From NCBI GenBank assembly GCA_005110385.1, contig DUDT01000009.1, forward strand, positions 1,660 through 65,659: a stretch of 64,000 nt of DNA, read 5' to 3'. The DNA comes from Candidatus Melainabacteria bacterium (GTDB lineage Bacteria; Cyanobacteriota; Vampirovibrionia; LMEP-6097). The notes beneath the pieces are model-generated. The model saw only the letters and a list, made by a program, of their open reading frames with translations, was not told the origin of the DNA and searched no databases. Every line of letters starts with the position of its first letter. The stretch's first letter is position 1. Of the stretch, positions 2,886-60,314 are shown piece by piece. The translations under genes were made by a program, and so were the position numbers.

Positions 2886-2888
2886 TTT

Positions 2889-4289
2889 ATGCTAGTATCG
2901 TGTCCTATGATAGCTCAAGGTGCTTCTCTTAGTTCTAAATTAGACCAAATTTCTAGCCACTTGAAACCGCTTAGTTATGCGGTCGATGCAAACAATAATA
3001 TTACAATAGCCGGACTTAAAGTAAAAGATTTACTTACTAAATATGGTAGCCCCTTATATATTCTCTGCGAAGAAACTATTCGTACTCGTGCAAGGCTCTA
3101 TGTAAATGCTTTTAAGAAATTTTATTCAGGCGAAAGCTTAGTTATTTATGCAAGTAAGGCACTTAACTGTAAAGCTGTCTGTAAGATTATAGATTCTGAG
3201 GGCTTAGGCATAGATGTGGTTAGTGGTGGAGAACTGTTTACTGCATTATCAGTAGGCTTTCCGAAAGAAAAAATTATTTTTCATGGTAATAATAAGGCTA
3301 AAGATGAACTGAAGATGGCGATAGAGAACCAAATCGGCTCTATTATGCTGGATAATTTTTATGAACTAGGGCTTATAAAAGAGCTTTTAGAGGAAGAATT
3401 TTCTGTAGATACGGCAGTGAACCTCTCTATTAGAGTCACTCCGGGCATAGAGTGCCATACGCATGAATATATTAAGACTGGCAGAATTGATAGTAAGTTT
3501 GGTTTTGATCTCTCTCAGGTTGATGAACTTATTTCTAAAATACTTACTTTAAAAGAGAAGTATAAAAACATAAATATTAAAGGTCTGCATGCTCATATAG
3601 GTTCACAGATATTTGAAACTATGCCGCATAACGATGTCGCGGGAGTTTTACTAAATCAATACAGGAGCCTTAAAGATAAATATGGCATTAGCTTACAGGA
3701 TATTAATGTCGGTGGTGGTTTAGGTATTAAATATCATGAACACGATGATCCCCCAGAGATTAATGACTGGGTGAAAGTTGTGGCTGATTCTATAGTTGCT
3801 AACTGTAAAACACTAAATTTAGAGTTACCGAGAGTAATAGTGGAGCCTGGTAGAAGTATAGTAGGACCCGCTGGTGTAACTGCTTATAAAGTTGGCAATA
3901 TTAAAAATATTCCAAATCTGCGTAAATATGTGGCTGTTGATGGTGGTATGGCAGATAATGTTAGGCACATTATGTATCAGGCTCGTTACTATGCTGAGGT
4001 AGATGGAAAGATTAGTGATGCTAAGACTGAAAAAGTTACTATTGCTGGTAAATTCTGTGAGTCTGGGGATATACTGATCCGTGATATCGATCTTCCAGAG
4101 CTAGATCATGATGATGTAATAGTGGTCTATTCGACTGGTGCTTATAACTATAGTATGGCGAGTAACTATAATCGAGTGCGAAGGCCTGCTATGCTACTTG
4201 TAAATAACGGCAGAGCCGATATTATTATAAGAAGAGAGACTTATGAGGACGTCCTACAATGGGATGAACTACCTCAGAACTTATCTTAG
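2889..4289 (+). CDS. lysA: Diaminopimelate decarboxylase
   Basis: 466 aa. Orn/DAP/Arg decarboxylase motifs (YASKALNC, HAHIGSQ, EPGRSIVG, CESGD). The start could instead be the ATG at 2907. Confidence 0.9.
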   Translation: MLVSCPMIAQGASLSSKLDQISSHLKPLSYAVDANNNITIAGLKVKDLLTKYGSPLYILCEETIRTRARLYVNAFKKFYSGESLVIYASKALNCKAVCKIIDSEGLGIDVVSGGELFTALSVGFPKEKIIFHGNNKAKDELKMAIENQIGSIMLDNFYELGLIKELLEEEFSVDTAVNLSIRVTPGIECHTHEYIKTGRIDSKFGFDLSQVDELISKILTLKEKYKNINIKGLHAHIGSQIFETMPHNDVAGVLLNQYRSLKDKYGISLQDINVGGGLGIKYHEHDDPPEINDWVKVVADSIVANCKTLNLELPRVIVEPGRSIVGPAGVTAYKVGNIKNIPNLRKYVAVDGGMADNVRHIMYQARYYAEVDGKISDAKTEKVTIAGKFCESGDILIRDIDLPELDHDDVIVVYSTGAYNYSMASNYNRVRRPAMLLVNNGRADIIIRRETYEDVLQWDELPQNLS

Positions 4290-4524
4290 AGAACTAGCAG
4301 AAAGCCTTTAAGGAGGTTGTACCACTATCCCAGCTGATAACACTAGTCTAGAGCTGAACTATTTAGATGTAGGAGAGCTTTTATATAAGTTTTTAGATAT
4401 AGAGTTTAATACTATAAGTCTTTTTACAGTAGCGATACAGCTTGCGATTTTAGCTTGGTTAGTATATCAGGCTTATGATCGTTTTAAAGGCACGCAGGCA
4501 GAGAGAATCTTAAGGGGTTTAATT

Positions 4525-5259
4525 ATGCTTCTGCCAGTAATGATGCTTTGTTATATTTTGAAACTAAGTATACTTACTAAAATTTTTGAAATATTTTCAC
4601 AGACTTTTATTGTGGGCTTGATAGTTATATTTGCTCCTGAATTTCGCAGAGTATTAATTCAGTTAGGCGGTGAGTTTAATCTTTTAAATTATATAGAGGG
4701 CCATAAATCTTTAGATCAGTTGGAGAAGGCGAATAAAAATATTGTCGCTTCTTTGGAGATGCTACAGAAAAAGCGAGTAGGGGCTTTGATTATCGTAGAA
4801 AAGTCTCAGGCAGAGCGTTATTATATTAATGCAGGTTTCCCTATTAATGCAGATATCTCTAAGGAGCTGATGATGACTATCTTTGATAATAAATCTCCTT
4901 TGCATGATGGTGCTGTTATTATTCGTGGAACTCAGCTTGCTCTAGCTAGTGTTATATTGCCAATGACAGAGAACCCTAAGTTAGATTGGCAGTATGGAAC
5001 TAGGCATAGGGCTGCTATCGGTTTTAGTGAAGTTACAGATGCTTTGTGTTTCGTAGTTTCAGAGGAGACTGGTGATATTTCTATGGCAAAGCAGGGGAAA
5101 TTAAAGCGATATGAGAGCATCGCAGCTTTAGAGCAAGAGCTGAGTGATTTTTATAAGCATATTGATCATAATCGCAGTAAAAGAACGCAGATATTTACTA
5201 CTTTAGGTAAGGTTTTAAGGAAAAGAAAAAAAATAATAGCTAGTGATGACGGTGTTTGA
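4525..5259 (+). CDS. cdaA: Diadenylate cyclase CdaA (DAC domain); the true start is probably upstream at a non-ATG codon
   Basis: DAC motifs PLHDGAVIIRG, GTRHRAAIG and VVSEETGDIS. The frame stays open back to 4312 and encodes a CdaA-like N-terminus (AILAWLVYQAYDRFKGTQAERILRGL). Confidence 0.85.
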   Translation: MLLPVMMLCYILKLSILTKIFEIFSQTFIVGLIVIFAPEFRRVLIQLGGEFNLLNYIEGHKSLDQLEKANKNIVASLEMLQKKRVGALIIVEKSQAERYYINAGFPINADISKELMMTIFDNKSPLHDGAVIIRGTQLALASVILPMTENPKLDWQYGTRHRAAIGFSEVTDALCFVVSEETGDISMAKQGKLKRYESIAALEQELSDFYKHIDHNRSKRTQIFTTLGKVLRKRKKIIASDDGV

Positions 5260-5275
5260 TAGAATGTTATGAGCT

Positions 5276-6013
5276 ATGAATCAGGAACTAAAAAAAGATA
5301 TTCTCGTCATTGATGATGATCCAGCTATACTTGAACTTGTAAGTTTTAATCTAGAATTGCAGGGTTATAATGTTGAGTCTTGTGATAATGCTATAGATGG
5401 CTTGGCGATGGCTTTTCAGAAGCCGCCACATTTAATTATTCTTGATTTGATGATGCCTAATATGGATGGTTTTACAGCCTGTCAGCGCATTAGGCAGAAT
5501 GATGTAACGAAAGAAACACCAGTACTAATGCTTACAGCTCTTAATCGCACTAATGATAAAGTGACTGGCTTTGATTCTGGCGCTGATGATTATTTAACTA
5601 AGCCTTTTGAGCTTCCTGAGCTTTTTGTGCGTGTTAAAGCACTTCTCAGAAGATCTGGTGCTATTACTTTAGCTCAGTCGATCCCGGAGGTTCTTCATTC
5701 TGGGGATATTACTTTAATGCCAGAATCTAGAGAAGTTAAAATTGAAGATAAAATTTTAAGACTTACTCCTATTGAGTTTGAAGTTCTGCATTGCTTAATG
5801 CAGAATCATGGTCAGACAGTATCACCAGGTCTTATTCTTAAAGAAGTCTGGGGTTATTCACCGGAAGATGATATAGATACCATCAGAGTACATATCCGTC
5901 ATTTAAGGTCTAGAATAGAAGCTGGGGCTAAGAAGTATATCAAGACTGTCTATGGTGGTGGTTATCAGTTAATTCCAGAGGGGTTTTTAAAAAGTCATTC
6001 TGGGGCAGTTTAG
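5276..6013 (+). CDS. OmpR-family response regulator (receiver plus winged helix), RpaB-like
   Basis: 245 aa. Motifs ILVIDDDP, LDLMMPNMDG, KPF and a C-terminal trans_reg_C (LTPIEFEVL ... YIKTVYGGGYQL). Confidence 0.9.
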   Translation: MNQELKKDILVIDDDPAILELVSFNLELQGYNVESCDNAIDGLAMAFQKPPHLIILDLMMPNMDGFTACQRIRQNDVTKETPVLMLTALNRTNDKVTGFDSGADDYLTKPFELPELFVRVKALLRRSGAITLAQSIPEVLHSGDITLMPESREVKIEDKILRLTPIEFEVLHCLMQNHGQTVSPGLILKEVWGYSPEDDIDTIRVHIRHLRSRIEAGAKKYIKTVYGGGYQLIPEGFLKSHSGAV

Positions 6014-6065
6014 ATTTCTTAAAGACTGATGTATAAGCTGCATCGGTCTCTGTTAGAATGTTCTT

Positions 6066-6467
6066 ATGACTTTTCTTAAAAGATTATCTTTTTTGGTTCT
6101 TGCCTTAAGTTTATTTTTAGGTGCAAGTCCCGTCTATAGCTCTCATGGAGCTGTTTCTAAGGTCACTTCATCATTAATTTCTGCTCCTTTGGGTGGCTTT
6201 TTCGGTCTTGCACGTGGGGCTGTTTCTAAGTCTTCGCAGTATGCTTCCTCATTTTCTACAGAATTTGGCGAAGGACTTCTTCCAAGATTAGTCGGTGTAC
6301 CATCTGGTTTTCTTATTGGTGGTGTCGCTGGTGGTGCGACAGGTCTTTTGCGTGGTGTGATTAACGGTGTAAGAATTAGTCAGGATAGTCCTTTCTCCGC
6401 AGCGGCTATGAGCTTGGATGGTGATTTTATTGATTTTGATCCTTATGATTTTAATGCTACATATTAA
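6066..6467 (+). CDS. Hypothetical secreted Gly/Ser-rich protein
   Basis: 133-aa ORF with a signal-peptide-like N-terminus (LSFLVLALSLFLGASPVYS). No recognisable domain. Confidence 0.45.
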   Translation: MTFLKRLSFLVLALSLFLGASPVYSSHGAVSKVTSSLISAPLGGFFGLARGAVSKSSQYASSFSTEFGEGLLPRLVGVPSGFLIGGVAGGATGLLRGVINGVRISQDSPFSAAAMSLDGDFIDFDPYDFNATY

Positions 6468-6473
6468 AGACGA

Positions 6474-6505
6474 AAACGCAGGAATTGGAGATTGGCAATA
6501 GTGCC
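6474..6505 (+). repeat. AAACGCAGAA-type dispersed repeat, copy A (intergenic, abuts the cimA ATG)
   Basis: aaacgcaggaattggagattggcaatagtgcc aligns along its whole length with copies at 46598, 36742 and 56371(rc). Confidence 0.8.
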
Positions 6506-8134
6506 ATGCGAGCAATAGAGATTTACGATACTACACTTAGAGATGGCGCGCAGATGCGTGGCATCTCTTTTAGCGTCAATGATAAACTCAAAGTACTAAG
6601 GCTATTAGATGATATTGGTGTGGCTTTCGTAGAGGGCGGTTGGCCTGGGGCGAATCCGAAGGATGTAGATTTTTTTACTGAAGCAAAAAAGATTAAGCTG
6701 AAAAACACTCAGCTAGTAGCTTTTGGCAGTACTCGTAAAGCGAATACTAAGGTGGAGTCAGATCCTATATTAGCTGCTCTTTTGCGAGCGGAGACACAGG
6801 TGATCTGCATAGTTGGGAAAAGCTCTGCCCCGCAGGTTACCAATACTTTAAAGATTTCCCTAGCAAAGAATTTAGATATGCTCGCTGAAAGTATATCTTT
6901 TCTGAAATCAGAAGGCCGCCGAGTGATAATAGATGCTGAACATTTCTTTGATGGTTACGTGGCTGATTCTGCTTACTCGCTTAAGTTTGCTAAAATTGCG
7001 GTGGAAGCTGGGGCTGAAACCTTGGTTCTCTGTGATACTAATGGTGGCAGTTTACCCGAGCAGGTTTTTAAAATCACTAAAGAGATTACAGATGCTTATA
7101 AAGAGAAGCTTAAAATTGGTATTCATGCACATAATGACTGTGAGCTTGCGGTAGCTAACAGTATTAGAGCGGTGAGAGCTGGTGCTACTCAAGTGCAGGG
7201 AACCATTAATGGCTATGGAGAACGCTGTGGTAATGCGAATCTGATTTCTATAATTCCTAATCTGGAGCTTAAGTATACTGAAGAGAAATTAAAGTGCTTA
7301 CCTAAGGATAAGTTAAAACATTTGAGCAGTCTTTCTCATTCTGTCGCTGAAATAGCTAATCAGCACCACAGTGCCCATCAGCCTTTCGTCGGAGCTAGCT
7401 CCTTCGCTCATAAAGCTGGCTTGCATGCAAGTGCAATGAAGAAGCAGGACTTTAGTTATGAGCATATAGACCCTCTTTTAGTAGGTAATGCTACGAAGAT
7501 TATTATTTCAGAGCAGTCTGGCGTGAGTAATATACTAGATTGGCTACAGAAGAAAAAGCTTTCTCCTAAAGCGAATGATGAGATTATTGGAGAATTCGCT
7601 AAAACTGTTTTAGAGAGAGTGAAGAAGCTAGAGCATAAGGGATATAGCTTTGAGAATGCTGATGCGAGTTTAGAGTTAATGGTGCGTAAATTAATAGATG
7701 TAGAAGGCTCTGCTGAAACTAAACTCAAGGCTTATAAGCCTTACTTTAAGCTAGTGGAGCACAATGTATATATTTCAAATGGCGAGAAGACAGAGGCTAC
7801 GGTACGAATCGAAATAGCAGGTGAGGAAATCCACTCTGCGAGTGTGGGTAATGGTCCGGCTAATGCCTTAGATAAAGCTCTTAGAAAAGCTTTAGTAAGT
7901 TTTTATCCTAAGATAGAAGAGTTTCAGCTATTAGATTACAAGGTAAGGATTCAGGATAGTTCACTTGGAACGGCAGCTCTGACTAAGGTTCAGGTTAATA
8001 CTGGAAATTTAGCTGAGGATTGGGATACTATCGGCGTTAGCACTAATATTATAAAAGCTTCTTGGGATGCGATTGTTGATAGTATTGAATATGGTTTGAT
8101 CAAGTATGGTGTTAAACCGGTTGAATTCGCTTAG
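6506..8134 (+). CDS. cimA: Citramalate synthase / 2-isopropylmalate synthase family (with LeuA-type C-terminal regulatory domain)
   Basis: MRAIEIYDTTLRDGAQ start, HAHND and the LeuA_dimer-like tail. The track ORF starts at TTG 6485, but that extension is encoded by repeat copy A. Confidence 0.85.
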   Translation: MRAIEIYDTTLRDGAQMRGISFSVNDKLKVLRLLDDIGVAFVEGGWPGANPKDVDFFTEAKKIKLKNTQLVAFGSTRKANTKVESDPILAALLRAETQVICIVGKSSAPQVTNTLKISLAKNLDMLAESISFLKSEGRRVIIDAEHFFDGYVADSAYSLKFAKIAVEAGAETLVLCDTNGGSLPEQVFKITKEITDAYKEKLKIGIHAHNDCELAVANSIRAVRAGATQVQGTINGYGERCGNANLISIIPNLELKYTEEKLKCLPKDKLKHLSSLSHSVAEIANQHHSAHQPFVGASSFAHKAGLHASAMKKQDFSYEHIDPLLVGNATKIIISEQSGVSNILDWLQKKKLSPKANDEIIGEFAKTVLERVKKLEHKGYSFENADASLELMVRKLIDVEGSAETKLKAYKPYFKLVEHNVYISNGEKTEATVRIEIAGEEIHSASVGNGPANALDKALRKALVSFYPKIEEFQLLDYKVRIQDSSLGTAALTKVQVNTGNLAEDWDTIGVSTNIIKASWDAIVDSIEYGLIKYGVKPVEFA

Positions 8135-33694: not shown

Positions 33695-35476
33695 TTATTG
33701 TAAATTAAAATTAGCATCCAGGAATTCACCGCTTTTTAATATTTCTACGGTTTCCTCAATGCTATAGATCTGATCTTTTGAGAGAGCCTGCTTGAACCAT
33801 GCTTTTTTTTCTGGAAATTTTCTATAAATCATCGTCAGCATCTTAAGTAACACTTGATTTTCTGCTTGATTTTTTTTAATTACTTCATCAAGAAAGGCTT
33901 TCATTTGATTTCTAGAGTTTACGTGATCTTCTAGCAATTTTTCTAATAAATCATCAAAATCCTTACTAAAAGAATCCCTCGTAAGGTCTATAGTGAACTT
34001 AAATAAATCAATATTTTTGGAGTTTAGCTTCTTGATAAGATTTAAACCTTGGTCAAAACTGTTTATTTGATACTGATTTAGGTAATAACGGTGATAAGGA
34101 TTATTCTCTAAATCGATTACAATTGCCTTATCGAATAGATCTTGAATATAAGCTTGTTTTTTTTTCTCAAATTCTGTCATTAAATTAACGGGAATGACAT
34201 CGTTTAAGGGCATTTTTATAATTTTTATGCCAAAGTATTGCTCAAGGTATTTACCAAGGTTACCTTCCCGTAAAGCAGGGCCGTAATTATGAGCAGAGCA
34301 AAGTTTTTTTAATAGAAGAGACTCTTTAATTAGAGTGTGATCTGTTAATGAATCAGGATTCAGATAGAAAGCTAATTCATTTGGTTGTAGTTCTTTATCA
34401 AGAAAGAATGCATTCATAATTTTAATTACATTTTTGAGTGCAGTAATAATTTTTTGCTTTATTGTTCCATTATCTTGTGATTCATAAGCATTTTTAAATA
34501 TTTGAGCTGCTATTGGCTGTTTTTGAATCTCCTCAAGAATCATCTTTAGGTTCCTTTTACTGCTGGCTCCAAGCGTTGAAGCGGGTGTTTCTATTTCTTC
34601 CAGTAAATTATTTATAAACTCAGGAGCTTGAGTGTTTTTACGGTCTATAGCACTAGAGGCATGCCTGAATATTGATTTTTCATCGTAAGTATAATTAGGT
34701 CCCTCACACCTAATACTATGACTTTTTCGGCAATTTTTTAAGGGCGCTGTTGAGTGAGGTCTATCTGGAAATAAGATAATGTAAAGATGATTTCTAGTCA
34801 TTACTATTGAAAGATCATCTGGATGCGTACCTGCCCCTAGTATGTCAGGAAATGATGGTCGACAATCGTCTGGGTGTATGTGTAAATTATCTACTGGTCT
34901 TGCAGCATGATGCTCTGGGGAATCATCTAATCGCAGGTACCCATACATCGTAAGTACGTGCCGAAGGAGGGTTCTGTGGCATTCTCCGTCAAATTCATTT
35001 ACCTCTTTTTTATCTTTTTTTCGTTCTTCTTCAGTCATTGCCCGACTTTGACTAACATTCACTCTATCTGGAACAAAATAAACTGCTCCTGGGATACCCG
35101 GAATTAGTACTGTTTCTCCACTCGGCACACCCCTGAACATTAAGTATTCTTGGGTCTTACCGACAGTACCTTGAGGGGCCATAAGGTTTTTTATTCCAAC
35201 CCTGCCATCTAGTATTTCTTGCATAAAAGATTTAGTTATTTCTTCTAATCGTTGAAGTTGAATTTGATTTTCTGAGAGTAAGCCTCGGAGCTGCTCTTGA
35301 GTGATATAAGGGATGTGATCGCGCGCTGCTTGATCTACTTGGCTTCGGGGGCTTGCTAGATTTTTTCCTTGAGCTCTAGGAGCGCGGGCGTCAGCTTTCC
35401 TTGTAGCTAATAGCGCGGGCTTTACATCTACATCTACAGGTAAGGAGTTAGCAGAAATCGAATTTATAGTATTCAT
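33695..35476 (-). CDS. Hypothetical 593-aa protein (orphan; G+C-rich 5' half, AT-rich 3' half)
   Basis: Long ORF with an ATG start. I recognise no motif. Composition shifts strongly within the gene. Confidence 0.7.
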   Translation of the reverse strand: MNTINSISANSLPVDVDVKPALLATRKADARAPRAQGKNLASPRSQVDQAARDHIPYITQEQLRGLLSENQIQLQRLEEITKSFMQEILDGRVGIKNLMAPQGTVGKTQEYLMFRGVPSGETVLIPGIPGAVYFVPDRVNVSQSRAMTEEERKKDKKEVNEFDGECHRTLLRHVLTMYGYLRLDDSPEHHAARPVDNLHIHPDDCRPSFPDILGAGTHPDDLSIVMTRNHLYIILFPDRPHSTAPLKNCRKSHSIRCEGPNYTYDEKSIFRHASSAIDRKNTQAPEFINNLLEEIETPASTLGASSKRNLKMILEEIQKQPIAAQIFKNAYESQDNGTIKQKIITALKNVIKIMNAFFLDKELQPNELAFYLNPDSLTDHTLIKESLLLKKLCSAHNYGPALREGNLGKYLEQYFGIKIIKMPLNDVIPVNLMTEFEKKKQAYIQDLFDKAIVIDLENNPYHRYYLNQYQINSFDQGLNLIKKLNSKNIDLFKFTIDLTRDSFSKDFDDLLEKLLEDHVNSRNQMKAFLDEVIKKNQAENQVLLKMLTMIYRKFPEKKAWFKQALSKDQIYSIEETVEILKSGEFLDANFNLQ

Positions 35477-42189: not shown

Positions 42190-43404
42190 ATGCCTAATAA
42201 TGATGCCAAAAATTTAATTGAATTTATTGATATCTTAAATGTTAAAAATTTTGTAGAACTTGCAAATAAGACCTGTAAATTATTGGTAGAGAAATTTTCT
42301 AAGCAAAATGCTGACTTCGCTTATTTCTATCTTTCTGGTTACGAAGGGAAAATATATTATTCACTGAAAGATGATAAAAAAGCCGCTAAATTTTCCATTA
42401 CTGAATCTGACACTAGTGAATTTAAAAAGATTTATTACATACACAAAGAAACAGAAGGTCATATTAGTTCTGCCTTCACTGTTTTTAGCCGAACTAAATC
42501 AGCTAATAATTTAGCTAAGAACGCAGAATTTGAAAATCACGAGCAGCCCCCTAGCACTCTCCCAGAGAAGGATTTAGAGCTTTTAAATAGAATGGTGAGC
42601 GCTATATTAGATCAAATTTCTTTATTATCAGCTTTAGAGAATATTCAGTTAAACAATGAAAGATTAGTGAAACTTAACGAAAATAAGACCCAGATATTAG
42701 GCACCGTCTCGCACGAATTAAGGACTCCGATGTCTGCGATATTAGGTTTTAGTGAGCTTTTGTTAAATGCTTCGTACAGCCCCGAGCTTACAAAAAAATA
42801 TTTAGAAGAAATCTATCAAGCTTCTAAAAAACTTGCTGGTTTAATAGATGATTTCCTCGATTTATCACGCTTAGAATCAAATGATGAATTATTTCTAAGT
42901 GATTTTGAAGCAGTTGAGATATCGACTCTTGCAAGAAAAGCATGGGATGAGATTCAGGATCAACATAAACCATATTCGGTTAAGTGGGCTGTGAATTCTG
43001 AGATGCCCTATATACTCTGTGACGTAGTAGCTGTCGAGAGGGTATTTCATAATTTATTCTCGAATGCCATAAAGTATTCACCGATAGAGGTTTCTAAGCC
43101 AGATAGAAAAGTGATTAACTGTAGAATAGATATAGTCACGGCAGCAAGTCCAGAGAATTTTTTTGATGAAATTTCTGTATCTATTAGTGACAACGGAATG
43201 GGTATCGCTAAAGAGAATGTAGGACAGGTTTTTGAGCGTTTTATGCGAGTAGATAATAGTGATACACGTAAAATCGGTGGCACGGGGCTCGGTTTATGGA
43301 TCTGCAAGCAGATTATCGAAGCTCATGGTGGTAAGATCTGGTGTGAGAGTGAGCTTGGACAGGGTAGTGTGTTTAAGTTTATTTTGCCGATTTATCGGGG
43401 GTGA
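42190..43404 (+). CDS. Cytoplasmic sensor histidine kinase (HisKA plus HATPase_c)
   Basis: H-box [15 protein letters not shown]-box [10 protein letters not shown], and G-boxes DNGMGI and [11 protein letters not shown]. Confidence 0.85.
42520..42550 (+). repeat. AAACGCAGAA-type repeat embedded in an ORF (encodes [12 protein letters not shown])
   Basis: aacgcagaatttgaaaatcacgagcagcccc aligns with the intergenic consensus from the AACGCAGAA core to the terminal GCCCC. Confidence 0.6.
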
Positions 43405-43406
43405 GA

Positions 43407-43437
43407 GGCTGCTCATCAGCTCCAGTTTCTGCGTTTT
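43407..43437 (-). repeat. AAACGCAGAA-type dispersed repeat, copy D (inverted, partly diverged; right after the kinase stop)
   Basis: ggctgctcatcagctccagtttctgcgtttt. Its TTTCTGCGTTTTAA end supplies the stop codon of the 596-aa gene. Confidence 0.65.
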
Positions 43438-45226
43438 AAAAATTCATTAATTCATTAAATGCCTTATCATAATAACTATTCGAGTTCTCAATATCAGTAT
43501 CTAGGCTAAGTGTGTCTGTATCTTTGCTTTCATCGTAATTAAAGAATACAGTTCTAGAATGACTTTTATAACAGGCATCTTCTAGGCTCATTTCATTATT
43601 TTTTAAACGATTAAAATTTCCTTCTAAAAATCTTAACGGCAATATATAGAAATTAAAATCGAGGGACTCCTGTGCAATTCCATTTCCTGCATTTTTCTCG
43701 TTCTTTTTTTTATCTGGATTTAAAAGATTATGTTTAATAGCAAGCCTAGTTATTTTTTCTTTTAAGATACTGTTTCCTTCACTATTTGCAGTGTTAATTA
43801 AACTAAAAGTTTGATCTGAAATGACTAATATCGGTATAATTTCAGCTTCCTTTTTAGTTTTAGTGGCTCCCTTTGCGCCATCTTCAGTGTTGCACTGTTT
43901 ACAACCTGGATTCTCACTATAAAGCTGAATAACACCCTCTGCGAGCTTTTCTATATTCTTTTCTATTTTATCTTCATCATAAATATCCTTAAGTGCGAAG
44001 TGATAGTTTAGTTTCAGTGATTTGATTTCAATAATATAAATTTTTTCATCCGTGATGATTTTTAAATCTGAGACTTTTTCTTGACCATAGATATTAATAA
44101 ATAGATCTTTAATAAACTGCTCGAATAAATCTCCATAAAAGCTTCTAAAGGGCTGAGCAGCTCTGAGACCTTCGCTCTTAAATTCTTCTCTATAAATATC
44201 ATCTAGAGCATTAAATAACGCGTCCTCTAAAATTATATTTCTCAAATATGGATATACGGGACTAAGAAAAAAAGGATATCGATTTTTATATTTTCTATCA
44301 GGTCTTATCAATGGATAGATCATCAGAGGGTTTATCGGGTTTAATTCTTTAGCTTTTTCTTGAAATTCTTTATAGGAGAGGGAGAAGGGCATTAGGGTTT
44401 TAATGATTGAATCTTTTTCTATTGACTCATTTACCTCAAGCAAGCGAGCTTGTATTTTTGGAAGATCCTCTTCTTCCCATTTGATGCTCTGATAATCTAT
44501 ACACCCACTAAAATTATACTTGCCTTGCTTCCAGCCCAATTCTTTATCGTGTAAGACTCCGAGGGAACCAAATATCAGAAAAGCCTTCATGGATAAAGAA
44601 AATTTTTCTTTAAATTTAGTTTCTGGGTTAATACTCTCAGTCTTTGCCTCAGTGGCAATATTACTAAATAGTTTTTTATGACGTTTTTTAAATTCTTCTT
44701 TCTTCGCATCTTTCTCTGTGAGATGCTTATAGGCTTTAATAAAAATTAAATACTGCCTAGCAAGTAAGTGCCTGCGATTAGACTGTCTCTGAATTTGATA
44801 CTTAGCTTGCATTTCCCATAAATGCAGCCAAAATTGAGCATTCCACATATCTGAATCTCTAATTCTTATTTCTTCCCCATTTTCAGTTTTCAAGTCTGGA
44901 GATTTATGAACTACGTGATACCAAAGATATCCACTGACATTGAAAAAATACTCAAGCTTCTCAACTTTATCCTTTCTAGCACTGAGATATAAAGCCTTTG
45001 TATCATTTGCACCGCTGATGATAAGTAACTGAACTAAATATCCGAGGCTTTCTTGAGTGAACATCACATCCTTATTTTTATAAGCAAAGCCATTACTAAT
45101 TTCACTTGAGGCATCTGGATTAGCATAGAGATATTCAGAGACCTTTCCTATTTCGAGTAGAGCATCCTGAAGGTTATATTTGCCTAGCTCGCGTATTAAA
45201 TCATGTTCAGTAATTTTGCGTTGCAT
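43436..45226 (-). CDS. Hypothetical 596-aa protein with a candidate PD-(D/E)xK nuclease core
   Basis: I recognise no family. The segment GDLFEQFIKDLF...VSDLKIITDEKIYIIEIKS fits helix-E, then D, then a beta hairpin, then ExK of restriction-endonuclease-like folds. Confidence 0.65.
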   Translation of the reverse strand: MQRKITEHDLIRELGKYNLQDALLEIGKVSEYLYANPDASSEISNGFAYKNKDVMFTQESLGYLVQLLIISGANDTKALYLSARKDKVEKLEYFFNVSGYLWYHVVHKSPDLKTENGEEIRIRDSDMWNAQFWLHLWEMQAKYQIQRQSNRRHLLARQYLIFIKAYKHLTEKDAKKEEFKKRHKKLFSNIATEAKTESINPETKFKEKFSLSMKAFLIFGSLGVLHDKELGWKQGKYNFSGCIDYQSIKWEEEDLPKIQARLLEVNESIEKDSIIKTLMPFSLSYKEFQEKAKELNPINPLMIYPLIRPDRKYKNRYPFFLSPVYPYLRNIILEDALFNALDDIYREEFKSEGLRAAQPFRSFYGDLFEQFIKDLFINIYGQEKVSDLKIITDEKIYIIEIKSLKLNYHFALKDIYDEDKIEKNIEKLAEGVIQLYSENPGCKQCNTEDGAKGATKTKKEAEIIPILVISDQTFSLINTANSEGNSILKEKITRLAIKHNLLNPDKKKNEKNAGNGIAQESLDFNFYILPLRFLEGNFNRLKNNEMSLEDACYKSHSRTVFFNYDESKDTDTLSLDTDIENSNSYYDKAFNELMNF

Positions 45227-45238
45227 GAAATCTCCTCC

Positions 45239-46447
45239 CTACACGTTTTCTAAAAACTCATAAAAATTACTGCGATTAATAACATTGAAATTCGCTAGAG
45301 GAAAGTCTTTCTCCCATTGGCTGGGGATTTTAATCTTAGTTTCTTCTTTACTGTATTTAAGCTCATAAGCATAGAGATGATTTAATTTACCGTCGCCAAG
45401 TTCTTCGATTAGGTCTATCTCCTGATCTCCTAGATTCGCTTTCACTCGCCAGAAATATGTTTTAAGAGAATTTCCATGAATATATTTATTTAGTTTTCTT
45501 TTCTCTGCGATTATAAAATTCTCCCATAAAGCCCCGATATCACTTCTGAAGGCTAATCCAGAAAAGTCATTAATTAAAGCATTTCTAATTCCATTATCGT
45601 AAAAATAATATTTTTTTTGTTTTTTAATTGCATTGCTCGGATTCTGTTTTTTAAGTGAAGTAGCAGCCTCTTTAGAAAAGCTATCTAGCTTAAACACCAG
45701 AAATGATTTTTCCATTAATTCTAAATATTTCTCTACAGTAGCTCGATTAAGCTGTAATTCATTTGCTAAATCATTTAGGTTTAATATCTGCCCTGCTCTG
45801 TAAGCCACTAGCATAGCGAGGTGTTCTATCTTACTTGCATTTTTAAGACCGTCTAAAGTGAAAATATCTTTAAAAAGGTAATCATTAATTATGCTTCTGA
45901 GTAAATCGATTCTCTCATCTCTATGTAAAGGCTTATCACTTAAAGATATTTCAGGGTAAGAGCCGAAGATTAAACGGTCTTCAAGATTGGTCTTCGCTGT
46001 TTTTTCATCTTTATATATTTCAAATATAGCTGGTGGATATATCTCTATTTCTCGCTTTCTGCCAGCATTAGATTCTTTGATTTGATTCTTGATCTCTATA
46101 CTAGACGATCCAGTCAGGATTAGGCGACTTTCTGTTTTCACGTAATCGGCGAAGTTTTTTATAAAGAGATCCATCTCTTCTAATTTCTGAGCTTCATCGA
46201 TAGCGAGATAGTCGTATTGGCTAAGTTCATTAATCAAAGTTATTTTATCGGTATTATTAAAATAGGCTCTGTCGTAATAGTTATCAGCATTTATAAGTTT
46301 ATAGGTTTTCTTTTTTTTCTCCTGCTCGTTTAAAAACTGTTTTAATAATGTGCTTTTACCTACCTGTCTAGCTCCGAATAATAGAGTAACCTTTTTAGAG
46401 GTGCAGGCATTATATATAAGGTCACTAAGGAATTTTCTATCTATCAT
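45239..46447 (-). CDS. AAA+ ATPase of the AAA_14/DUF4143 (COG1373) family
   Basis: Walker A GARQVGKST, Walker B YLAIDEAQKLEE, a wHTH (NRATVEKYLELMEKSFLV) and a DUF4143-like tail (FFWR...EIDLIEE...YELKYS). Confidence 0.85.
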   Translation of the reverse strand: MIDRKFLSDLIYNACTSKKVTLLFGARQVGKSTLLKQFLNEQEKKKKTYKLINADNYYDRAYFNNTDKITLINELSQYDYLAIDEAQKLEEMDLFIKNFADYVKTESRLILTGSSSIEIKNQIKESNAGRKREIEIYPPAIFEIYKDEKTAKTNLEDRLIFGSYPEISLSDKPLHRDERIDLLRSIINDYLFKDIFTLDGLKNASKIEHLAMLVAYRAGQILNLNDLANELQLNRATVEKYLELMEKSFLVFKLDSFSKEAATSLKKQNPSNAIKKQKKYYFYDNGIRNALINDFSGLAFRSDIGALWENFIIAEKRKLNKYIHGNSLKTYFWRVKANLGDQEIDLIEELGDGKLNHLYAYELKYSKEETKIKIPSQWEKDFPLANFNVINRSNFYEFLENV

Positions 46448-46508
46448 ATATCTAAAATATTATACCCAAATAGTTAAATATATCTATAAAAATATATTAT
46501 GATTGATT

Positions 46509-46553
46509 AAATTAGATAATTTAGTTTAGCTTGTTATATAAAATTAGATAATT
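46509..46553. repeat. 13-nt direct repeat AAATTAGATAATT, two copies, in the promoter region of the ATPase operon
   Basis: Identical 13-mers at 46509-46521 and 46541-46553, 60-105 nt upstream of the minus-strand start at 46447. Confidence 0.6.
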
Positions 46554-46597
46554 GAAGGGGCTTGAAATTATTAGTTTAAGGTTAGTTTTACGATTTT

Positions 46598-46630
46598 AAA
46601 CGCAGAACTTGGAGTTCGGCAATAGTGCCC
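46598..46630 (+). repeat. AAACGCAGAA-type dispersed repeat, copy E (19 nt upstream of the trmFO GTG)
   Basis: aaacgcagaacttggagttcggcaatagtgccc is the best consensus-like copy. Confidence 0.85.
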
Positions 46631-46649
46631 TCTGCTAAAATAAAACTCT

Positions 46650-48110
46650 GTGCACGAAATAACCATAGTAGGAGCTGGGCTAGCTGGTACTGAGACTGCT
46701 TTTCAGCTCGCTAAATTTGCTAAAGCTTATGATCTAAATATTAGGATAAAACTCTATGAAATGCGCCCTAAAGTTAAAACACCAGCTCATCATACGGATA
46801 ATTTCGCTGAACTCGTTTGTAGTAACAGCTTAGGTTCAGAGTTTTTAACCACTGCTCGTGGAGTCTTAATTCAGGAGATGAAGCTTTTCGATAGCCTTAT
46901 AATAAATTCTGCTCTGAAAAGTAAAGTGCCAGCAGGACAGGCTTTAGCCGTGGATAGAGATAAGTTTGCGGAGATTATCTCTGAGGTGATATCTGTAAAT
47001 CCTTATATAGAGGTTATTCGAGAAGAATTTATAAATATACCTGTTGATTTTTTAGAAGCTAATTCTGAATATAATAAAAATAAATTTCTTATCATCGCCT
47101 CAGGCCCCCTCACTAGCCCTAATTTATCTGAGGAGATACAGAAACTCACTCAAGGAAAGGATTTTCTGAATTTTTTTGATGCTGCAAGTCCAATACTTAC
47201 AGCTGAAAGTATAAATATGGATATCGCTTTTAAAGCCTCTCGTTATGGAAAAGGTGAAACTGATGATTACATAAACTGTCCATTTTACAGTGCTGATGAA
47301 TATTATAGATTTCAAGAAGCTTTATTAAGCGCTGAGAGAGCTGAGCTTAAAGATTTTGAGAAAGAAAATATGCGTTATTTTGAGGGCTGTATGCCAGTTG
47401 AGGCGATAGCTGAAAGAGGAAAGGATACACTTAGATTCGGTCCTTTAAAACCTGTCGGCTTAACAGATCCACGCCGCCATAATGAGAAACCCTATGCAGT
47501 AGTGCAGCTTAGACAGGATAATGTTTTAGGCTCACTTTATAACATAGTCGGTTTTCAGACGAATCTTAAATGGGGAGAGCAAAAGCGAGTTTTTTCAATG
47601 ATTCCTGGTTTAGAGAACATAGATATAGTACGTTACGGCGTTATGCACCAAAATATATTTTTAAATAGCCCCACTCTGCTTTCAGAAAATCTTTCTTTAA
47701 AGACACACCCTAATATTTATTTCGCAGGTCAAATTACTGGCGTAGAAGGTTATACGGAATCTGCGGGAACGGGGATCGTTGTGGCTAGAAGTATTATTAT
47801 GAAAATTCTAAGTAGAATTAAACTGAACACGGCAATAGATCTTGAAAATGACAACGGTGCAAAAAATGGAATTGCACCACTCTCACGATTAACCATGCTT
47901 GGAGCATTAGCGAATTATGTTACTAGTGCTGATCCTAAACGCTTTCAGCCGATTAACTCTAACTGGGCATTAATAAACCCCAATCCAGAGGAACTGGAAA
48001 AAAAACTTAGAAAAGATAAAAGGCTTAAAAATGAATTTCTTGCAGAAAGGGCATTAGCTCTGATTAGAGAGGATGCTTTCACAAAAACTGCGACGATGAT
48101 AAATGCTTAG
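46650..48110 (+). CDS. trmFO: Methylenetetrahydrofolate--tRNA-(uracil-5-)-methyltransferase TrmFO
   Basis: GTG start. Motifs ITIVGAGLAGTE, LVCSNSLGS, GFQTNLKWGEQKRVF and FAGQITGVEGYTESAGTG. Confidence 0.9.
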   Translation: MHEITIVGAGLAGTETAFQLAKFAKAYDLNIRIKLYEMRPKVKTPAHHTDNFAELVCSNSLGSEFLTTARGVLIQEMKLFDSLIINSALKSKVPAGQALAVDRDKFAEIISEVISVNPYIEVIREEFINIPVDFLEANSEYNKNKFLIIASGPLTSPNLSEEIQKLTQGKDFLNFFDAASPILTAESINMDIAFKASRYGKGETDDYINCPFYSADEYYRFQEALLSAERAELKDFEKENMRYFEGCMPVEAIAERGKDTLRFGPLKPVGLTDPRRHNEKPYAVVQLRQDNVLGSLYNIVGFQTNLKWGEQKRVFSMIPGLENIDIVRYGVMHQNIFLNSPTLLSENLSLKTHPNIYFAGQITGVEGYTESAGTGIVVARSIIMKILSRIKLNTAIDLENDNGAKNGIAPLSRLTMLGALANYVTSADPKRFQPINSNWALINPNPEELEKKLRKDKRLKNEFLAERALALIREDAFTKTATMINA

Positions 48111-50890: not shown

Positions 50891-51763
50891 TCAAGCTCGG
50901 GGATGAAACTCTTTAAAAGCCTTCAATAGTTTATAGTCTTTAGTCTCTTTAGCTAATGATAAGTAGTGCGCTGGAACTTTAATACCTAAATTATTTTCTA
51001 AAGCTTGAATAGTTAAACCATCTTCAAGTAAATGTACTATGCGACTGCGTTTTAATTTCTTAGCCTGAATATCATACTTCTTTAATAACTTCGCTATTTT
51101 CACCTCCGAATCTAATTCAGAGATTCCAGTAAAAATGCATGCATCTAAACTCAGTCCTTCTTTAATTTTTAAAAACTGTTTTAGTCTTAAGGCTAAGTTA
51201 TCTGATAATTTTATTTCTGCAAACCGTGACTGCTCACGACTAGGAAGTTTTGCATTTTCGGCAACAGTGCCAAATCGCAATCTAAAAGAGGCTGTCGCAA
51301 AATTAAAATCTAAAACTTTTATGTTCAAAAGCTCAGAAGGAGATAAGCATAATTCAAACAAAAGTTCACAAAAAAGTAATTCAATTGGATCTTTAATCTT
51401 AGATAATTTTTCTAATAATTCTGATTTCGTATAAAAATCCTCAGCAGGCTCATTTGGAGTGTTTTTCACAGTTAGATTTTCATTAAAAGGATCATTTTCC
51501 AAATTTAACCATTTAGTAAACTGTCTTAAACTCGACAGTTTAACTTTATAAGTACTTAAATTATAGGTTTCCTGAAGATAAACTAAATAGACTCTAATAG
51601 AATCAGCGTTCAGTTCTAGCTTATTTATAGATAAATATTCAATAAACTTCTCTAAATCACGGCTAATAGAAGATATGGCATCTAAAGACTTTCTAGATTT
51701 AGTTTTTAGAAAATCCAGAAAAAATTCTAAAAGCTCAAGATTAGTTTCTGAATTACCTGTCAT
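50891..51763 (-). CDS. XerD-like tyrosine-recombinase homolog with substituted catalytic residues
   Basis: SAM-like N-domain and a C-terminal ...FHPRA, like the E. coli XerD tail HHPRA. Box I reads CLSPSEL (Arg to Ser), box II reads KKLKRS (HxxR lost) and LGI replaces LGH. Confidence 0.7.
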   Translation of the reverse strand: MTGNSETNLELLEFFLDFLKTKSRKSLDAISSISRDLEKFIEYLSINKLELNADSIRVYLVYLQETYNLSTYKVKLSSLRQFTKWLNLENDPFNENLTVKNTPNEPAEDFYTKSELLEKLSKIKDPIELLFCELLFELCLSPSELLNIKVLDFNFATASFRLRFGTVAENAKLPSREQSRFAEIKLSDNLALRLKQFLKIKEGLSLDACIFTGISELDSEVKIAKLLKKYDIQAKKLKRSRIVHLLEDGLTIQALENNLGIKVPAHYLSLAKETKDYKLLKAFKEFHPRA

Positions 51764-58562: not shown

Positions 58563-60314
58563 GTGGTAGAATTTTTAGGCGTGAGGATAAAGTCTTTAAA
58601 ATTACAAGATCATCCTGTGCTTGGGGACTTGGAGCTGGATTTTACTATCGGGGACAGGGTTGCTGACAATATTATTATTGCTGGGGAGAATGGTTGCGGG
58701 AAGACTACTTTACTGAATGTGATTAATGATTTTTTTGAATTTATGAGAGCCTATTTTGAATCTAAATCTACGATTATGCCTAATTATGGCATTGAAATTC
58801 AACTAATTAAGCTCCCAAATTATATAGAACAAGACTTTGGTAAAAGTAGTATTCAGATCAAAATCGAAAATAAGGGAATAGTAATTAATCATGAATTACA
58901 AAAACAAGAAACAATAAATAGGCATTTTGTTTTATCTTTATTCCGAACAATTTTTTTGAAATCTAATTTTAATATTAATACTCAAGTATTTAAAACACTC
59001 CCTAATCGCCAATCCTATATATCCCATAACGATAAAGATAATCAAACTACAGAAGCACAAAAAATCAAAGAGTTAATTATGACATCTTACATTATTGATG
59101 CTCTATGTTTAAAACAGTTGGATAAATCACTTACCCTGGGAGAAGCCCTTAAAGTTAATCAATCTTCACTGCTAAATAGATTAGAAAAAACATTTTCTTT
59201 AACTCTGTCACTTTTTCCATTCAATTCTAGCGAGTGGGAAGTATATGTTGGATTAAATAAAAAATTTGTAAAATTAGAAGAACTTAGTTCTGGAGAAAAG
59301 CAGATGATTTTTAGAGGAGTCTATTTTTTACAAGCACTAGATTCTCATAAATCACTTGATGGCGAAAATAAAGATACATCTATAGATAATGTGATATGCC
59401 TAATAGATGAACCTGAAAATAGTTTACACCCTAGATGGCAAAAAGAAATATTAAAGTCACATAAATCTTTAGCTTCCAACTCATTCAATATACAAGAAGT
59501 TCAGATCTTGTTTTCTACCCACTCTCCATTTATAATCCATGAGGCAAATCCTCAAACGGATAAAGTTATAGTTCTTCAAAAAGATCAAGATGGGAAGATC
59601 ATAGTAGCTCAAGATCCTTTATTTGAGAGCTGTGATGGAGAGAAGCTTGTAGAAGCTGCTTTTTATATTAATTTTAGAAAAACCAATAAACCTCTAGTTA
59701 TTACAGAAGGTAAAACGGATAAACAAATTATAGAAACGGCTTGGAGTAAGCTTTACCCAAATGCAGAGATGCCTTTTGAGATTCATGATGCGGGTATTTA
59801 TCCAGATAAAATAAATGTTACAGATGGTAAGCAAGAAAGAAAAGGAGGAGCTAATCATATTACTTCATTACTTAGCTACTCTTTAAGATTTAATGAGGAT
59901 CGTATTATTGGTCTATTTGACAATGATCATGAGGGCAATAATGTCGAAATGCCTAAGCTTAAGAATAATAAATTTGAGTTGAAGAAAACTTCTAATTTTT
60001 CCTACTGTAAATACCCTGATAAAGATGTTTTTGGCTTATTATTGCCATGCCCAGATCATAGAAAAAATTATGTTTGCGAAGGTGCAAAAGCTAAAAAAAA
60101 GTTAGTAATAGAACACTATTTTAACGACATAATTCTGGAAAAACATAAGCTAAAGGGAGAAGCGTACGATGAAAATATATTTTTTATTAATGATGGAAAC
60201 AAAACAAAATTTGCAGAAGAAATAATTCAAACCCTCCCACCAGAAGACTTTTCTTCATTTAAAATATTATTTGATGCCTTAAAGCATTTACTGGAGCCAA
60301 GTGGTGAACAATAA
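58563..60314 (+). CDS. Fused ABC-type ATPase and Toprim/DUF4435-like nuclease (OLD-family or fused PARIS-like)
   Basis: Walker A GENGCGKTT, signature LSSGEKQ, Walker B CLIDEPENSLH and H-loop STHSP. The C-terminal half has ITEGKTDKQ and LFDNDHEG (Toprim E ... DxD). Confidence 0.7.
   Translation: MVEFLGVRIKSLKLQDHPVLGDLELDFTIGDRVADNIIIAGENGCGKTTLLNVINDFFEFMRAYFESKSTIMPNYGIEIQLIKLPNYIEQDFGKSSIQIKIENKGIVINHELQKQETINRHFVLSLFRTIFLKSNFNINTQVFKTLPNRQSYISHNDKDNQTTEAQKIKELIMTSYIIDALCLKQLDKSLTLGEALKVNQSSLLNRLEKTFSLTLSLFPFNSSEWEVYVGLNKKFVKLEELSSGEKQMIFRGVYFLQALDSHKSLDGENKDTSIDNVICLIDEPENSLHPRWQKEILKSHKSLASNSFNIQEVQILFSTHSPFIIHEANPQTDKVIVLQKDQDGKIIVAQDPLFESCDGEKLVEAAFYINFRKTNKPLVITEGKTDKQIIETAWSKLYPNAEMPFEIHDAGIYPDKINVTDGKQERKGGANHITSLLSYSLRFNEDRIIGLFDNDHEGNNVEMPKLKNNKFELKKTSNFSYCKYPDKDVFGLLLPCPDHRKNYVCEGAKAKKKLVIEHYFNDIILEKHKLKGEAYDENIFFINDGNKTKFAEEIIQTLPPEDFSSFKILFDALKHLLEPSGEQ

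Follow-up and report, generated by a model that had tools for sequence, protein, structure and literature searches.

A PDC-S01-type AAA+ ATPase paired with a putative PD-(D/E)xK nuclease of a rare, previously unnamed family in Candidatus Caenarcaniphilales

PDC-S01 is one of the 145 “phage defence candidates” that came out of a guilt-by-embedding approach (bioRxiv 10.1101/2024.01.29.577857), and a 2026 PADLOC-based survey ranked it as the fourth commonest defence across prokaryotes, with validation pending for most such candidates (PMC12988326). The DUF4143/COG1373 domain of these ATPases was classed as a PD-(D/E)xK domain by Steczkiewicz et al. 2012 (PMC3424549). Two described systems join an ATPase to a nuclease: McrBC, a two-gene operon for an AAA+ NTPase and a PD-(D/E)xK nuclease with no cognate methyltransferase (MTase), and HEC-02, a defence module made of an ABC ATPase and a NERD protein (Payne et al., bioRxiv 10.1101/2024.01.29.577857). 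Here we analysed a stretch of 64,000 nucleotides (the window; contig DUDT01000009.1, positions 1,660 to 65,659) from the Candidatus Caenarcaniphilales / Vampirovibrionia lineage, in which a gene for a 402-aa ATPase of the PDC-S01 type is directly followed by a gene for a 596-aa protein. Sequence comparisons indicate that this pairing is real, conserved and previously uncatalogued, and that it involves a new putative nuclease family. By analogy, the pair resembles McrBC and HEC-02 in its logic, while it shares its ATPase family with neither.

An initial annotation of this DNA had described two co-oriented open reading frames (ORFs), 12 nt apart, between a histidine kinase gene and trmFO, and we could confirm this layout. 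Both genes lie on the minus strand, the ATPase gene at 45239–46447 and, downstream of it, the 596-aa gene at 43436–45226. One flank is a HisKA/HATPase_c histidine kinase gene (42190–43404, plus strand) and the other is a TrmFO-sized gene of the GIDA family (486 aa; 46650–48110, plus strand), a tRNA-modification enzyme by family. These immediate neighbours are housekeeping genes, no integrase or transposase gene was found at the locus, and no DNA MTase gene adjoins the pair in the window or in the locus of any syntenic relative. The GC content over the pair (0.30–0.35) is slightly below that of the flanks (~0.36–0.39).

By its sequence, the 402-aa protein is a full-length PDC-S01 ATPase (AAA_14 + DUF4143; COG1373), and as such it is already catalogued. 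Its residues 1–399 align with positions 1–373 of the 375 in the PADLOC profile PDLC04789 (PDC-S01; E = 1.1e-107), and both Pfam domains scored well above their cut-offs, AAA_14 at aa 18–143 (~46019–46396; 4e-26, 91.8 bits for a cut-off of 27) and the PD-(D/E)xK-like DUF4143 domain at aa 193–366 (~45350–45871; 1e-27, 96.9 bits for a cut-off of 28.1). The match to PDC-S01 thus runs from end to end, with intact Walker A (GARQVGKST, ~46352–46378) and Walker B (LAIDEAQ) motifs, an EIDL...YELK motif and the DUF4143 residues D345, E362 and K364. The COG1373-type assignment made in the initial annotation therefore stands for the Walker motifs, both domains and the EIDL...ELK motif, whereas the winged helix-turn-helix (wHTH) that it also named (aa 222–249) is seen only as a weak HTH_11 match (E = 0.075). 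A PDB sequence search with the ATPase returned only generic P-loop regions of RecA, no structure of the family being detectable by sequence. PDC-S01-type paralogs were also seen in tandem, or as groups of two to three within a few kb, at four loci (L024, L025, L026 and L027), from Patescibacteria / Parcubacteria and one unclassified metagenome-assembled genome (MAG).

The 596-aa protein had been reported to match no known family, and this was borne out in Pfam, NCBIfam, PADLOC, PHROGs and PDB sequences, where it found no match; the domain profile and the full-family profile likewise drew no meaningful match from PDB sequences. Homologs from a word-indexed search were all 72–96% identical to it, and the same kind of search with a mixed alignment returned nothing beyond close homologs. 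When 1.84 billion representatives were searched exhaustively with a profile, we found 32 family proteins at E ≤ 1e-3, most of them 460–570 aa long and with the layout of the 596-aa protein, and a further search added about 40 more family clusters, including clusters from Brocadiales and Candidate Phyla Radiation (CPR) MAGs. Relatives at 24–30% identity are encoded on Streptomyces and cyanobacterial plasmids. The distribution is patchy and cross-phylum, plasmids included. A metagenome search with the out-group alignment found no related loci, and neither gene has relatives among viral contigs and phage records, which led us to reject a phage origin of the pair. Together these searches place the 596-aa protein in a rare, previously unnamed family of putative nucleases. 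At one locus (L040) two family members stand side by side in convergent orientation (3597–5261, plus strand, and 5278–7062, minus strand), the second being very divergent (E = 4e-13 to the family hidden Markov model, HMM), and the family copies of L037 and L044 are split into two ORFs, probably as pseudogenes or through sequencing frameshifts.

What kind of nuclease this might be is indicated by the C-terminal half of the protein. The motifs GDLFEQFIKDLF...VSDLKIITDEKIYIIEIKS, in which the initial annotation had read a helix-E / D / ExK layout, are present, with D387 at 44066–44068, E400 at 44027–44029 and K402 at 44021–44023 (all minus strand). In a domain alignment R361, G365, D387, Y397, E400, K402, P465 and E535 are invariant. 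Across relatives down to ~20% identity D387 and E400 remain invariant and K402 near-invariant, a conservation which argues that the motif is more than chance. The proposed layout holds for these three residues but not for the helix acid E369, which is not strictly conserved, E/Q alternating with the next position. AlphaFold run on a shallow alignment of close homologs gave a predicted local distance difference test score (pLDDT) of 37.8, and that model was discarded; the model used here was built from a diverse alignment of 47 sequences and reached a predicted template modelling score (pTM) of 0.75, with a pLDDT of 84–93 over residues 361–400. Its predicted nuclease core (aa 354–535; 43622–44167, minus strand) consists of helix 354–380, strand 389–391, strand 395–402, helix 418–438, strand 462–469, a helix and strand 527–530, with the core order alpha-beta-beta-beta-alpha-beta. 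The model puts E400 and K402 on strand 395–402 and D387 just ahead of strand 389–391, the positions expected of a restriction-endonuclease fold, and further core residues are found on helix 418–438 (Q434), on strand 462–469 (P465) and after strand 527–530 (E535).

Weak similarities converge on the same fold. First, the weak Foldseek matches of the model are enriched in PD-(D/E)xK proteins (McrC twice, XisH, Nt.BspD6I, HincII, arenavirus/hantavirus endonucleases, CdiA-CT and a phage PDDEXK exonuclease). Second, in a Pfam scan of 47 family members all nuclease-family matches were sub-threshold and all were of PD-(D/E)xK type: DUF4143 in 3 of the 47 (best 5e-4), NERD in 3 (best 0.011), and DUF234, PDDEXK_9 (0.007) and SduA_C (E = 0.068) in one each. 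Third, a Streptomyces plasmid relative, to which PGAP gives the name “nuclease-related domain-containing protein”, can be aligned to the family HMM across the core, and its weak DUF4143 and NERD matches fall exactly on that core. Given the invariant catalytic residues, the AlphaFold topology and these convergent sub-threshold matches, we assign a restriction-endonuclease-type core to the family, and we consider it very likely, well supported if not proven, that the C-terminal domain of the 596-aa protein adopts a PD-(D/E)xK nuclease fold. By sequence, NERD and DUF4143 are its nearest families. The Shedu- or Mrr-like membership proposed in the initial annotation failed to hold, as the family gave no Mrr match, no PADLOC Shedu match and the single SduA_C match mentioned above; membership in McrC, Shedu or Mrr was unsupported by the Pfam, 47-member and PADLOC scans alike.

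Set beside the described systems, the pair shares features with several of them. Like NERD (PF08378) and DUF4143 (PF13635), the 596-aa core shows a D...ExK signature, with a predicted topology of alpha-beta-beta-beta-alpha-beta, but no family member reaches either gathering score: for NERD (22.1 bits), the window protein has no match and the Streptomyces plasmid relative scores 18.0 bits. Neither of these families has a counterpart of the ~350-aa helical N-terminal region (aa 1–350), which is all-alpha, carries conserved SGANDxK, Q140, Q144, R157 and RFNPLxxYP, and has no recognisable relative in PDB and profile searches. With McrBC, the pair has in common a two-gene operon for an AAA+ NTPase and a predicted PD-(D/E)xK nuclease with no cognate MTase, and McrC is the top PDB fold match of the model (7vsr_M and 6hz4_M), although a non-significant one (E = 1.3). 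The window ATPase is however of the AAA_14/DUF4143 type, not of the McrB family, and has a nuclease-like domain of its own; no McrB-type family is among its listed Pfam matches, and the 596-aa protein has no McrC sequence match. HEC-02 also couples an ATPase to a NERD-type nuclease, and one family member weakly matches HEC-02B (E = 0.011), but its ATPase is of the ABC and not of the AAA+ type, and 46 of the 47 members, the window protein included, have no HEC-02B match.

Enzymes of the FokI or Nt.BspD6I type combine an N-terminal recognition region with a C-terminal PD-(D/E)xK cleavage domain. The 596-aa protein is similar to such Type II/IIS enzymes in size and domain order, its N-terminal region might serve in recognition, and several distant relatives are directly flanked by one or two MTases (L028, L031, L034/L035 and L038). 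In contrast, no MTase is present at the window or syntenic loci, and no family member matches a PADLOC restriction endonuclease model. As judged from the DNA MTases, LexA-S24-MTase fusions and defence islands beside its other members, the family may be an undescribed family of restriction endonucleases. Finally, PDC-S01 is catalogued as a single gene, whereas the ATPase genes of the window and of two other loci have a translationally coupled partner. On the mobilizable linear plasmid NZ_CP108066.1 of Streptomyces canus (L047:3739-8928), a NERD-annotated distant relative has as its neighbours a YaaC-family protein and a large “helicase associated domain” protein, which may represent a further multi-gene setting of the family.

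The organisation of the two genes points to common expression. The 12-nt spacer GGAGGAGATTTC (45227–45238, minus strand) holds a strong Shine-Dalgarno sequence for the 596-aa gene. Scanning 43000–47000, we found no terminator-like site on the minus strand, and the promoter scan found no promoter-like site on that strand at the gene junction. Ahead of the ATPase gene, in the promoter/operator region at 46448–46649 (minus strand), the scan found a sigma-70-like promoter with 10/12 matches, made of a -35 element TAGATA (46481–46486) and a -10 element TATAAT (46459–46464) with a 16-nt spacer; the -10 element ends ~11 nt ahead of the ATG, which would make the transcript near-leaderless. With this promoter before the ATPase gene and neither promoter nor terminator at the junction, one operon is the simplest reading. 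The same region holds two CTAATTT half-sites, at 46541–46547 and 46509–46515 (minus strand), for a 7-mer with a background of ~0.07–0.1 per 150 nt. The relatives L003 and L006 and the unrelated locus L011, whose ATPase is only 45% identical to that of the window, have an inverted element CTAATTT-N18-AAATTAG ahead of the ATPase gene, with the spacing the same in all. This element suggests sequence-specific regulation, possibly by the wHTH of the ATPase itself. In the window (46509–46547), the second half-site is flipped to direct orientation.

The pairing extends beyond the window. The order trmFO, ATPase, nuclease, histidine kinase, ndhB-like gene was found on every contig of the lineage that has the 596-aa gene (L001–L006 and L016–L019). 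The closest out-group nucleases are ~26% identical to the window protein, and two of the three are directly preceded by an AAA_14/DUF4143 ATPase: at L011 the paired genes are separated by 2 nt and adjoin SbtA/P-II genes, and at L015 (on the contig that also appears as L021, with the label “Ca. Caenarcanales”) they overlap by 4 nt and adjoin a gene for a DnaB_C/ChlI-domain (RadA/Sms-like) ATPase. The third, P0022, follows a phage-type integrase and lacks an ATPase. The pair is thus found at three unrelated loci with order and orientation unchanged, and its different chromosomal sites in other Caenarcaniphilales-like genomes imply relocation. The L011 and L015 ATPases are 45–47% identical to that of the window and 55% to each other, and Walker and catalytic residues are invariant across the three; their partners are 26% identical to the window nuclease and 41% to each other, so both genes follow the same branching order. 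All ATPases at least 45% identical to that of the window have the partner, with one exception (L020). No PADLOC model matches members of the 596-aa family, and the pairing is, as far as these models reach, not a named system; the initial annotation did not know it as one either, although the ATPase on its own is the catalogued PDC-S01.

Within Ca. Caenarcaniphilales, the two genes evolve at different rates. Synonymous divergence (dS) is similar for all genes of the region (~0.2–0.44), and since the position of the pair is fixed as well, it has been inherited vertically with no recent transfer. The “accessory island” of the initial annotation was therefore, in this lineage, not recently acquired. 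Between species representatives the ATPase is 98–99% identical, and its ratio of nonsynonymous to synonymous divergence (dN/dS) is the lowest nearby, 0.02–0.03, compared to 0.044–0.051 for the ndhB-like gene and 0.08–0.14 for trmFO. The nuclease gene has the highest local dN/dS (0.17–0.20), a value that still indicates purifying selection. Its variation is concentrated at aa 41–120, 221–240 and 441–520, with an invariant catalytic core, and segment-wise identities between alleles are mosaic, which suggests recombination. The partner is kept in four of the five species representatives. In the exception, the close relative L020 (93–96% nucleotide identity), the nuclease gene is cleanly replaced by ~290 nt of unrelated sequence (2836–3131) with a proline-rich ORF fragment, and the C-terminus of the ATPase changes from FLENV to FLKITPLL. 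The ATPase can hence persist without its partner.

The neighbourhoods of stand-alone relatives of the 596-aa protein give a different view of the family. One member (L009) lies in a dense defence island with an MmeI-like restriction-modification (R-M) gene, an SMC_N ATPase, MC6/DUF2326 (parts of ABC-3C), SLFN/AlbA, DarT-Macro and SNase genes. Another (L007) is part of an element that also carries genes for a large serine recombinase and a primase-helicase-like protein, and a third (L013) adjoins an integrase. Upstream of the L038 member are a protein with HSDR_N_2 and N6_Mtase/Eco57I domains and a DUF4268 protein, and two N6_N4 MTases lie directly downstream of the family member in L034 and L035. 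In L028 (4795–6279, minus strand) and L031 (1176–2615, minus strand), a gene divergent from the family member encodes a fusion of a LexA DNA-binding domain, an S24 peptidase and a DNA MTase, of the N6_N4 class in L028 and of the D12 class in L031. By its domains, such a fusion next to a putative nuclease looks like an R-M pair in which the methylase/repressor could be cleaved in an SOS-like manner. Over 81 immediate neighbours, MTases are the most recurrent Pfam family, alongside AAA_21; as raw counts, neighbours of defence or mobile type occur in several of the 20 non-redundant loci, and housekeeping neighbours occur too. These neighbourhoods suggest that the family is one of restriction or defence-type nucleases.

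Taking these observations together, our preferred but tentative reading is that the two genes, as one operon, encode a restriction-like nuclease module driven by ATP. Past the domain assignments, we infer each step of how it might work. The ATPase would bind DNA through its wHTH, might autoregulate its own expression via the CTAATTT-N18-AAATTAG palindrome, and would spend ATP on licensing, loading or translocating the complex. The variable segments of the 596-aa partner (aa 41–120 and 441–520) would supply target discrimination and its D387/E400/K402 site would cleave DNA, so that foreign DNA would be restricted by a logic analogous to that of McrBC or HEC-02. A more specific version, in which the pair is a new two-component, NTP-dependent and restriction-like immune system with a nearly invariant, CTAATTT-N18-AAATTAG-autoregulated ATPase as engine and a fast-diversifying, recombining nuclease as exchangeable specificity and effector subunit, is possible if doubtful.

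Several observations weigh against a restriction-like module. On the ATPase side, PDC-S01 is in PADLOC an unvalidated, single-gene candidate, and in the sole assay we found, eight candidates were challenged in E. coli B with T4, T5 and T7, and the four that gave protection did not include the PDC-S01 representative (bioRxiv 10.1101/2024.09.26.614923). On the nuclease side, the structure prediction that had been proposed as a check speaks for the fold by its topology and residue placement but not by similarity search, since Foldseek with the whole chain returned nothing significant (best PDB match E = 1.3, best viral match E = 0.029). Aligning the nuclease domain to the DUF4143 region of the partner ATPases with hhalign was also non-significant, and most alleles carry, between helix 1 and the strand of D387, a ~26-aa segment that is missing from the window allele. 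As for the pairing, ATPases at 35–38% identity from other phyla have no such partner, and none of the 24 loci (20 non-redundant) from the stand-alone branch of the 596-aa family has such an ATPase. The pairing is therefore real but confined to one sub-branch; the co-occurrence that the initial annotation proposed to check is thus seen among close relatives and in two members at ~26% identity at different loci, and not in the stand-alone branch. In L020 the ATPase is intact without the nuclease, at a dN/dS of 0.03–0.05. Finally, a fixed locus, a dS equal to that of the flanks and an ATPase more constrained than the ndhB-like gene and trmFO are unusual for defence genes.

The lack of ATPases at the stand-alone loci and the constrained L020 ATPase that outlived its nuclease also favour the idea that these are two independent single-gene elements, merely adjacent as a mini defence island, with each nuclease acting alone. 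PDC-S01 is indeed catalogued as a single gene and carries its own PD-(D/E)xK domain, and P0022, from the same sub-branch, lies beside an integrase with no ATPase. We nevertheless consider this rather unlikely. Order and orientation are the same at all three unrelated loci, where the genes are 12 nt apart, 2 nt apart or overlap by 4 nt, and their divergence is congruent; at the window junction no promoter- or terminator-like site was found on the gene strand. Moreover, because the family is so rare (~30 clusters in 1.84 billion representatives), repeated chance adjacency to a single ATPase sub-branch is improbable.

The fixed position in all relatives found, the dS equal to that of the flanks and the strong constraint on an ATPase that is nearly identical across species representatives could instead be read as signs of a lineage-specific non-defence module for DNA processing or regulation (repair, recombination, chromosome maintenance or stress response), now part of the core genome of the Caenarcaniphilales clade. 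The absence of integrase and transposase genes from the locus, a conserved operator-like palindrome that suggests regulated expression and the lack of validated defence activity for PDC-S01 are in line with it. However, relatives of the nuclease occur in R-M, defence and mobile contexts, the nuclease itself is mosaic, variable and lost in one close relative, the pair occupies different sites in other Caenarcaniphilales-like genomes, and the family is patchy, crosses phyla and is present on plasmids too. A non-defence role of this kind therefore appears unlikely.

The initial annotation had also seen the pair as flanked by repeats, and this is weakly supported by a single imperfect inverted repeat of 21 nt. 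Its downstream arm (43420–43440) overlaps the stop codon of the 596-aa gene and its upstream arm (46594–46614) lies in the trmFO–ATPase intergenic region; the arms are 86% complementary, with two matches in the window against 0.01 expected for a repeat chosen post hoc. Of the downstream arm, part remains in L003 and L004, L001 has a degenerate version and the shorter spacer of L006 lacks it, and the upstream arm is conserved in L001, L004 and L006 and lost to a 62-nt deletion in L003. The repeat is absent from the other paired loci, L011 and L015, and this absence, together with the erosion in relatives, weakens the idea of a mobile cassette. That the 596-aa protein is a classical R-M endonuclease or the toxin of a toxin-antitoxin-like pair, or that the pair is the decayed cargo of an inverted-repeat-bounded cassette, is very improbable: MTases do adjoin several distant relatives (in tandem in L034, as LexA-S24-MTase fusions in L028 and L031) and the repeat does bracket the window pair, but no MTase is found at the pair or its syntenic relatives, trmFO being of a tRNA-modification family, and the locus combines an eroded repeat with no transposase or integrase.

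If the pair is indeed a two-component immune system with an exchangeable nuclease subunit, it would offer the first evidence of partners acting with the PDC-S01 ATPases, which are extremely common, and it would define a new nuclease family which is elsewhere paired with MTases, including LexA-S24-MTase fusions. A sub-branch with a coupled nuclease partner also offers a testable route into how PDC-S01 ATPases work, and the pair extends what little is known of immunity genes in Vampirovibrionia (Melainabacteria).

Other genes of the window deserve mention. A 290-aa protein (50891–51763, minus strand) with a syntenic copy in L006 is encoded ~4.4 kb away from the pair, on the far side of the mtnB/ARD genes. 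Its sole match is to the SAM-like N-terminal domain of phage integrases (3.5e-6), by which it may be a Xer-like or degenerate recombinase. A 583-aa protein (58563–60314, plus strand) matches PADLOC models for ABC ATPases of the PtuA (Septu) and AriA (PARIS) type, with 5e-33 as the best value, and is a further candidate defence gene. The slot adjoining the release-factor gene (PCRF/RF-1 family) varies between relatives. In the window (33695–35476, minus strand) and in L006 it holds an orphan of 593–608 aa with no Pfam or PADLOC match; the 593-aa orphan of the window is unrelated to the 596-aa family, in which its membership was ruled out. In L001 (19976–21866) and L004 (19924–21815), the same slot holds an Eco57I-type methylase/R-M gene and a GmrSD_N gene, and it may be a defence hotspot.

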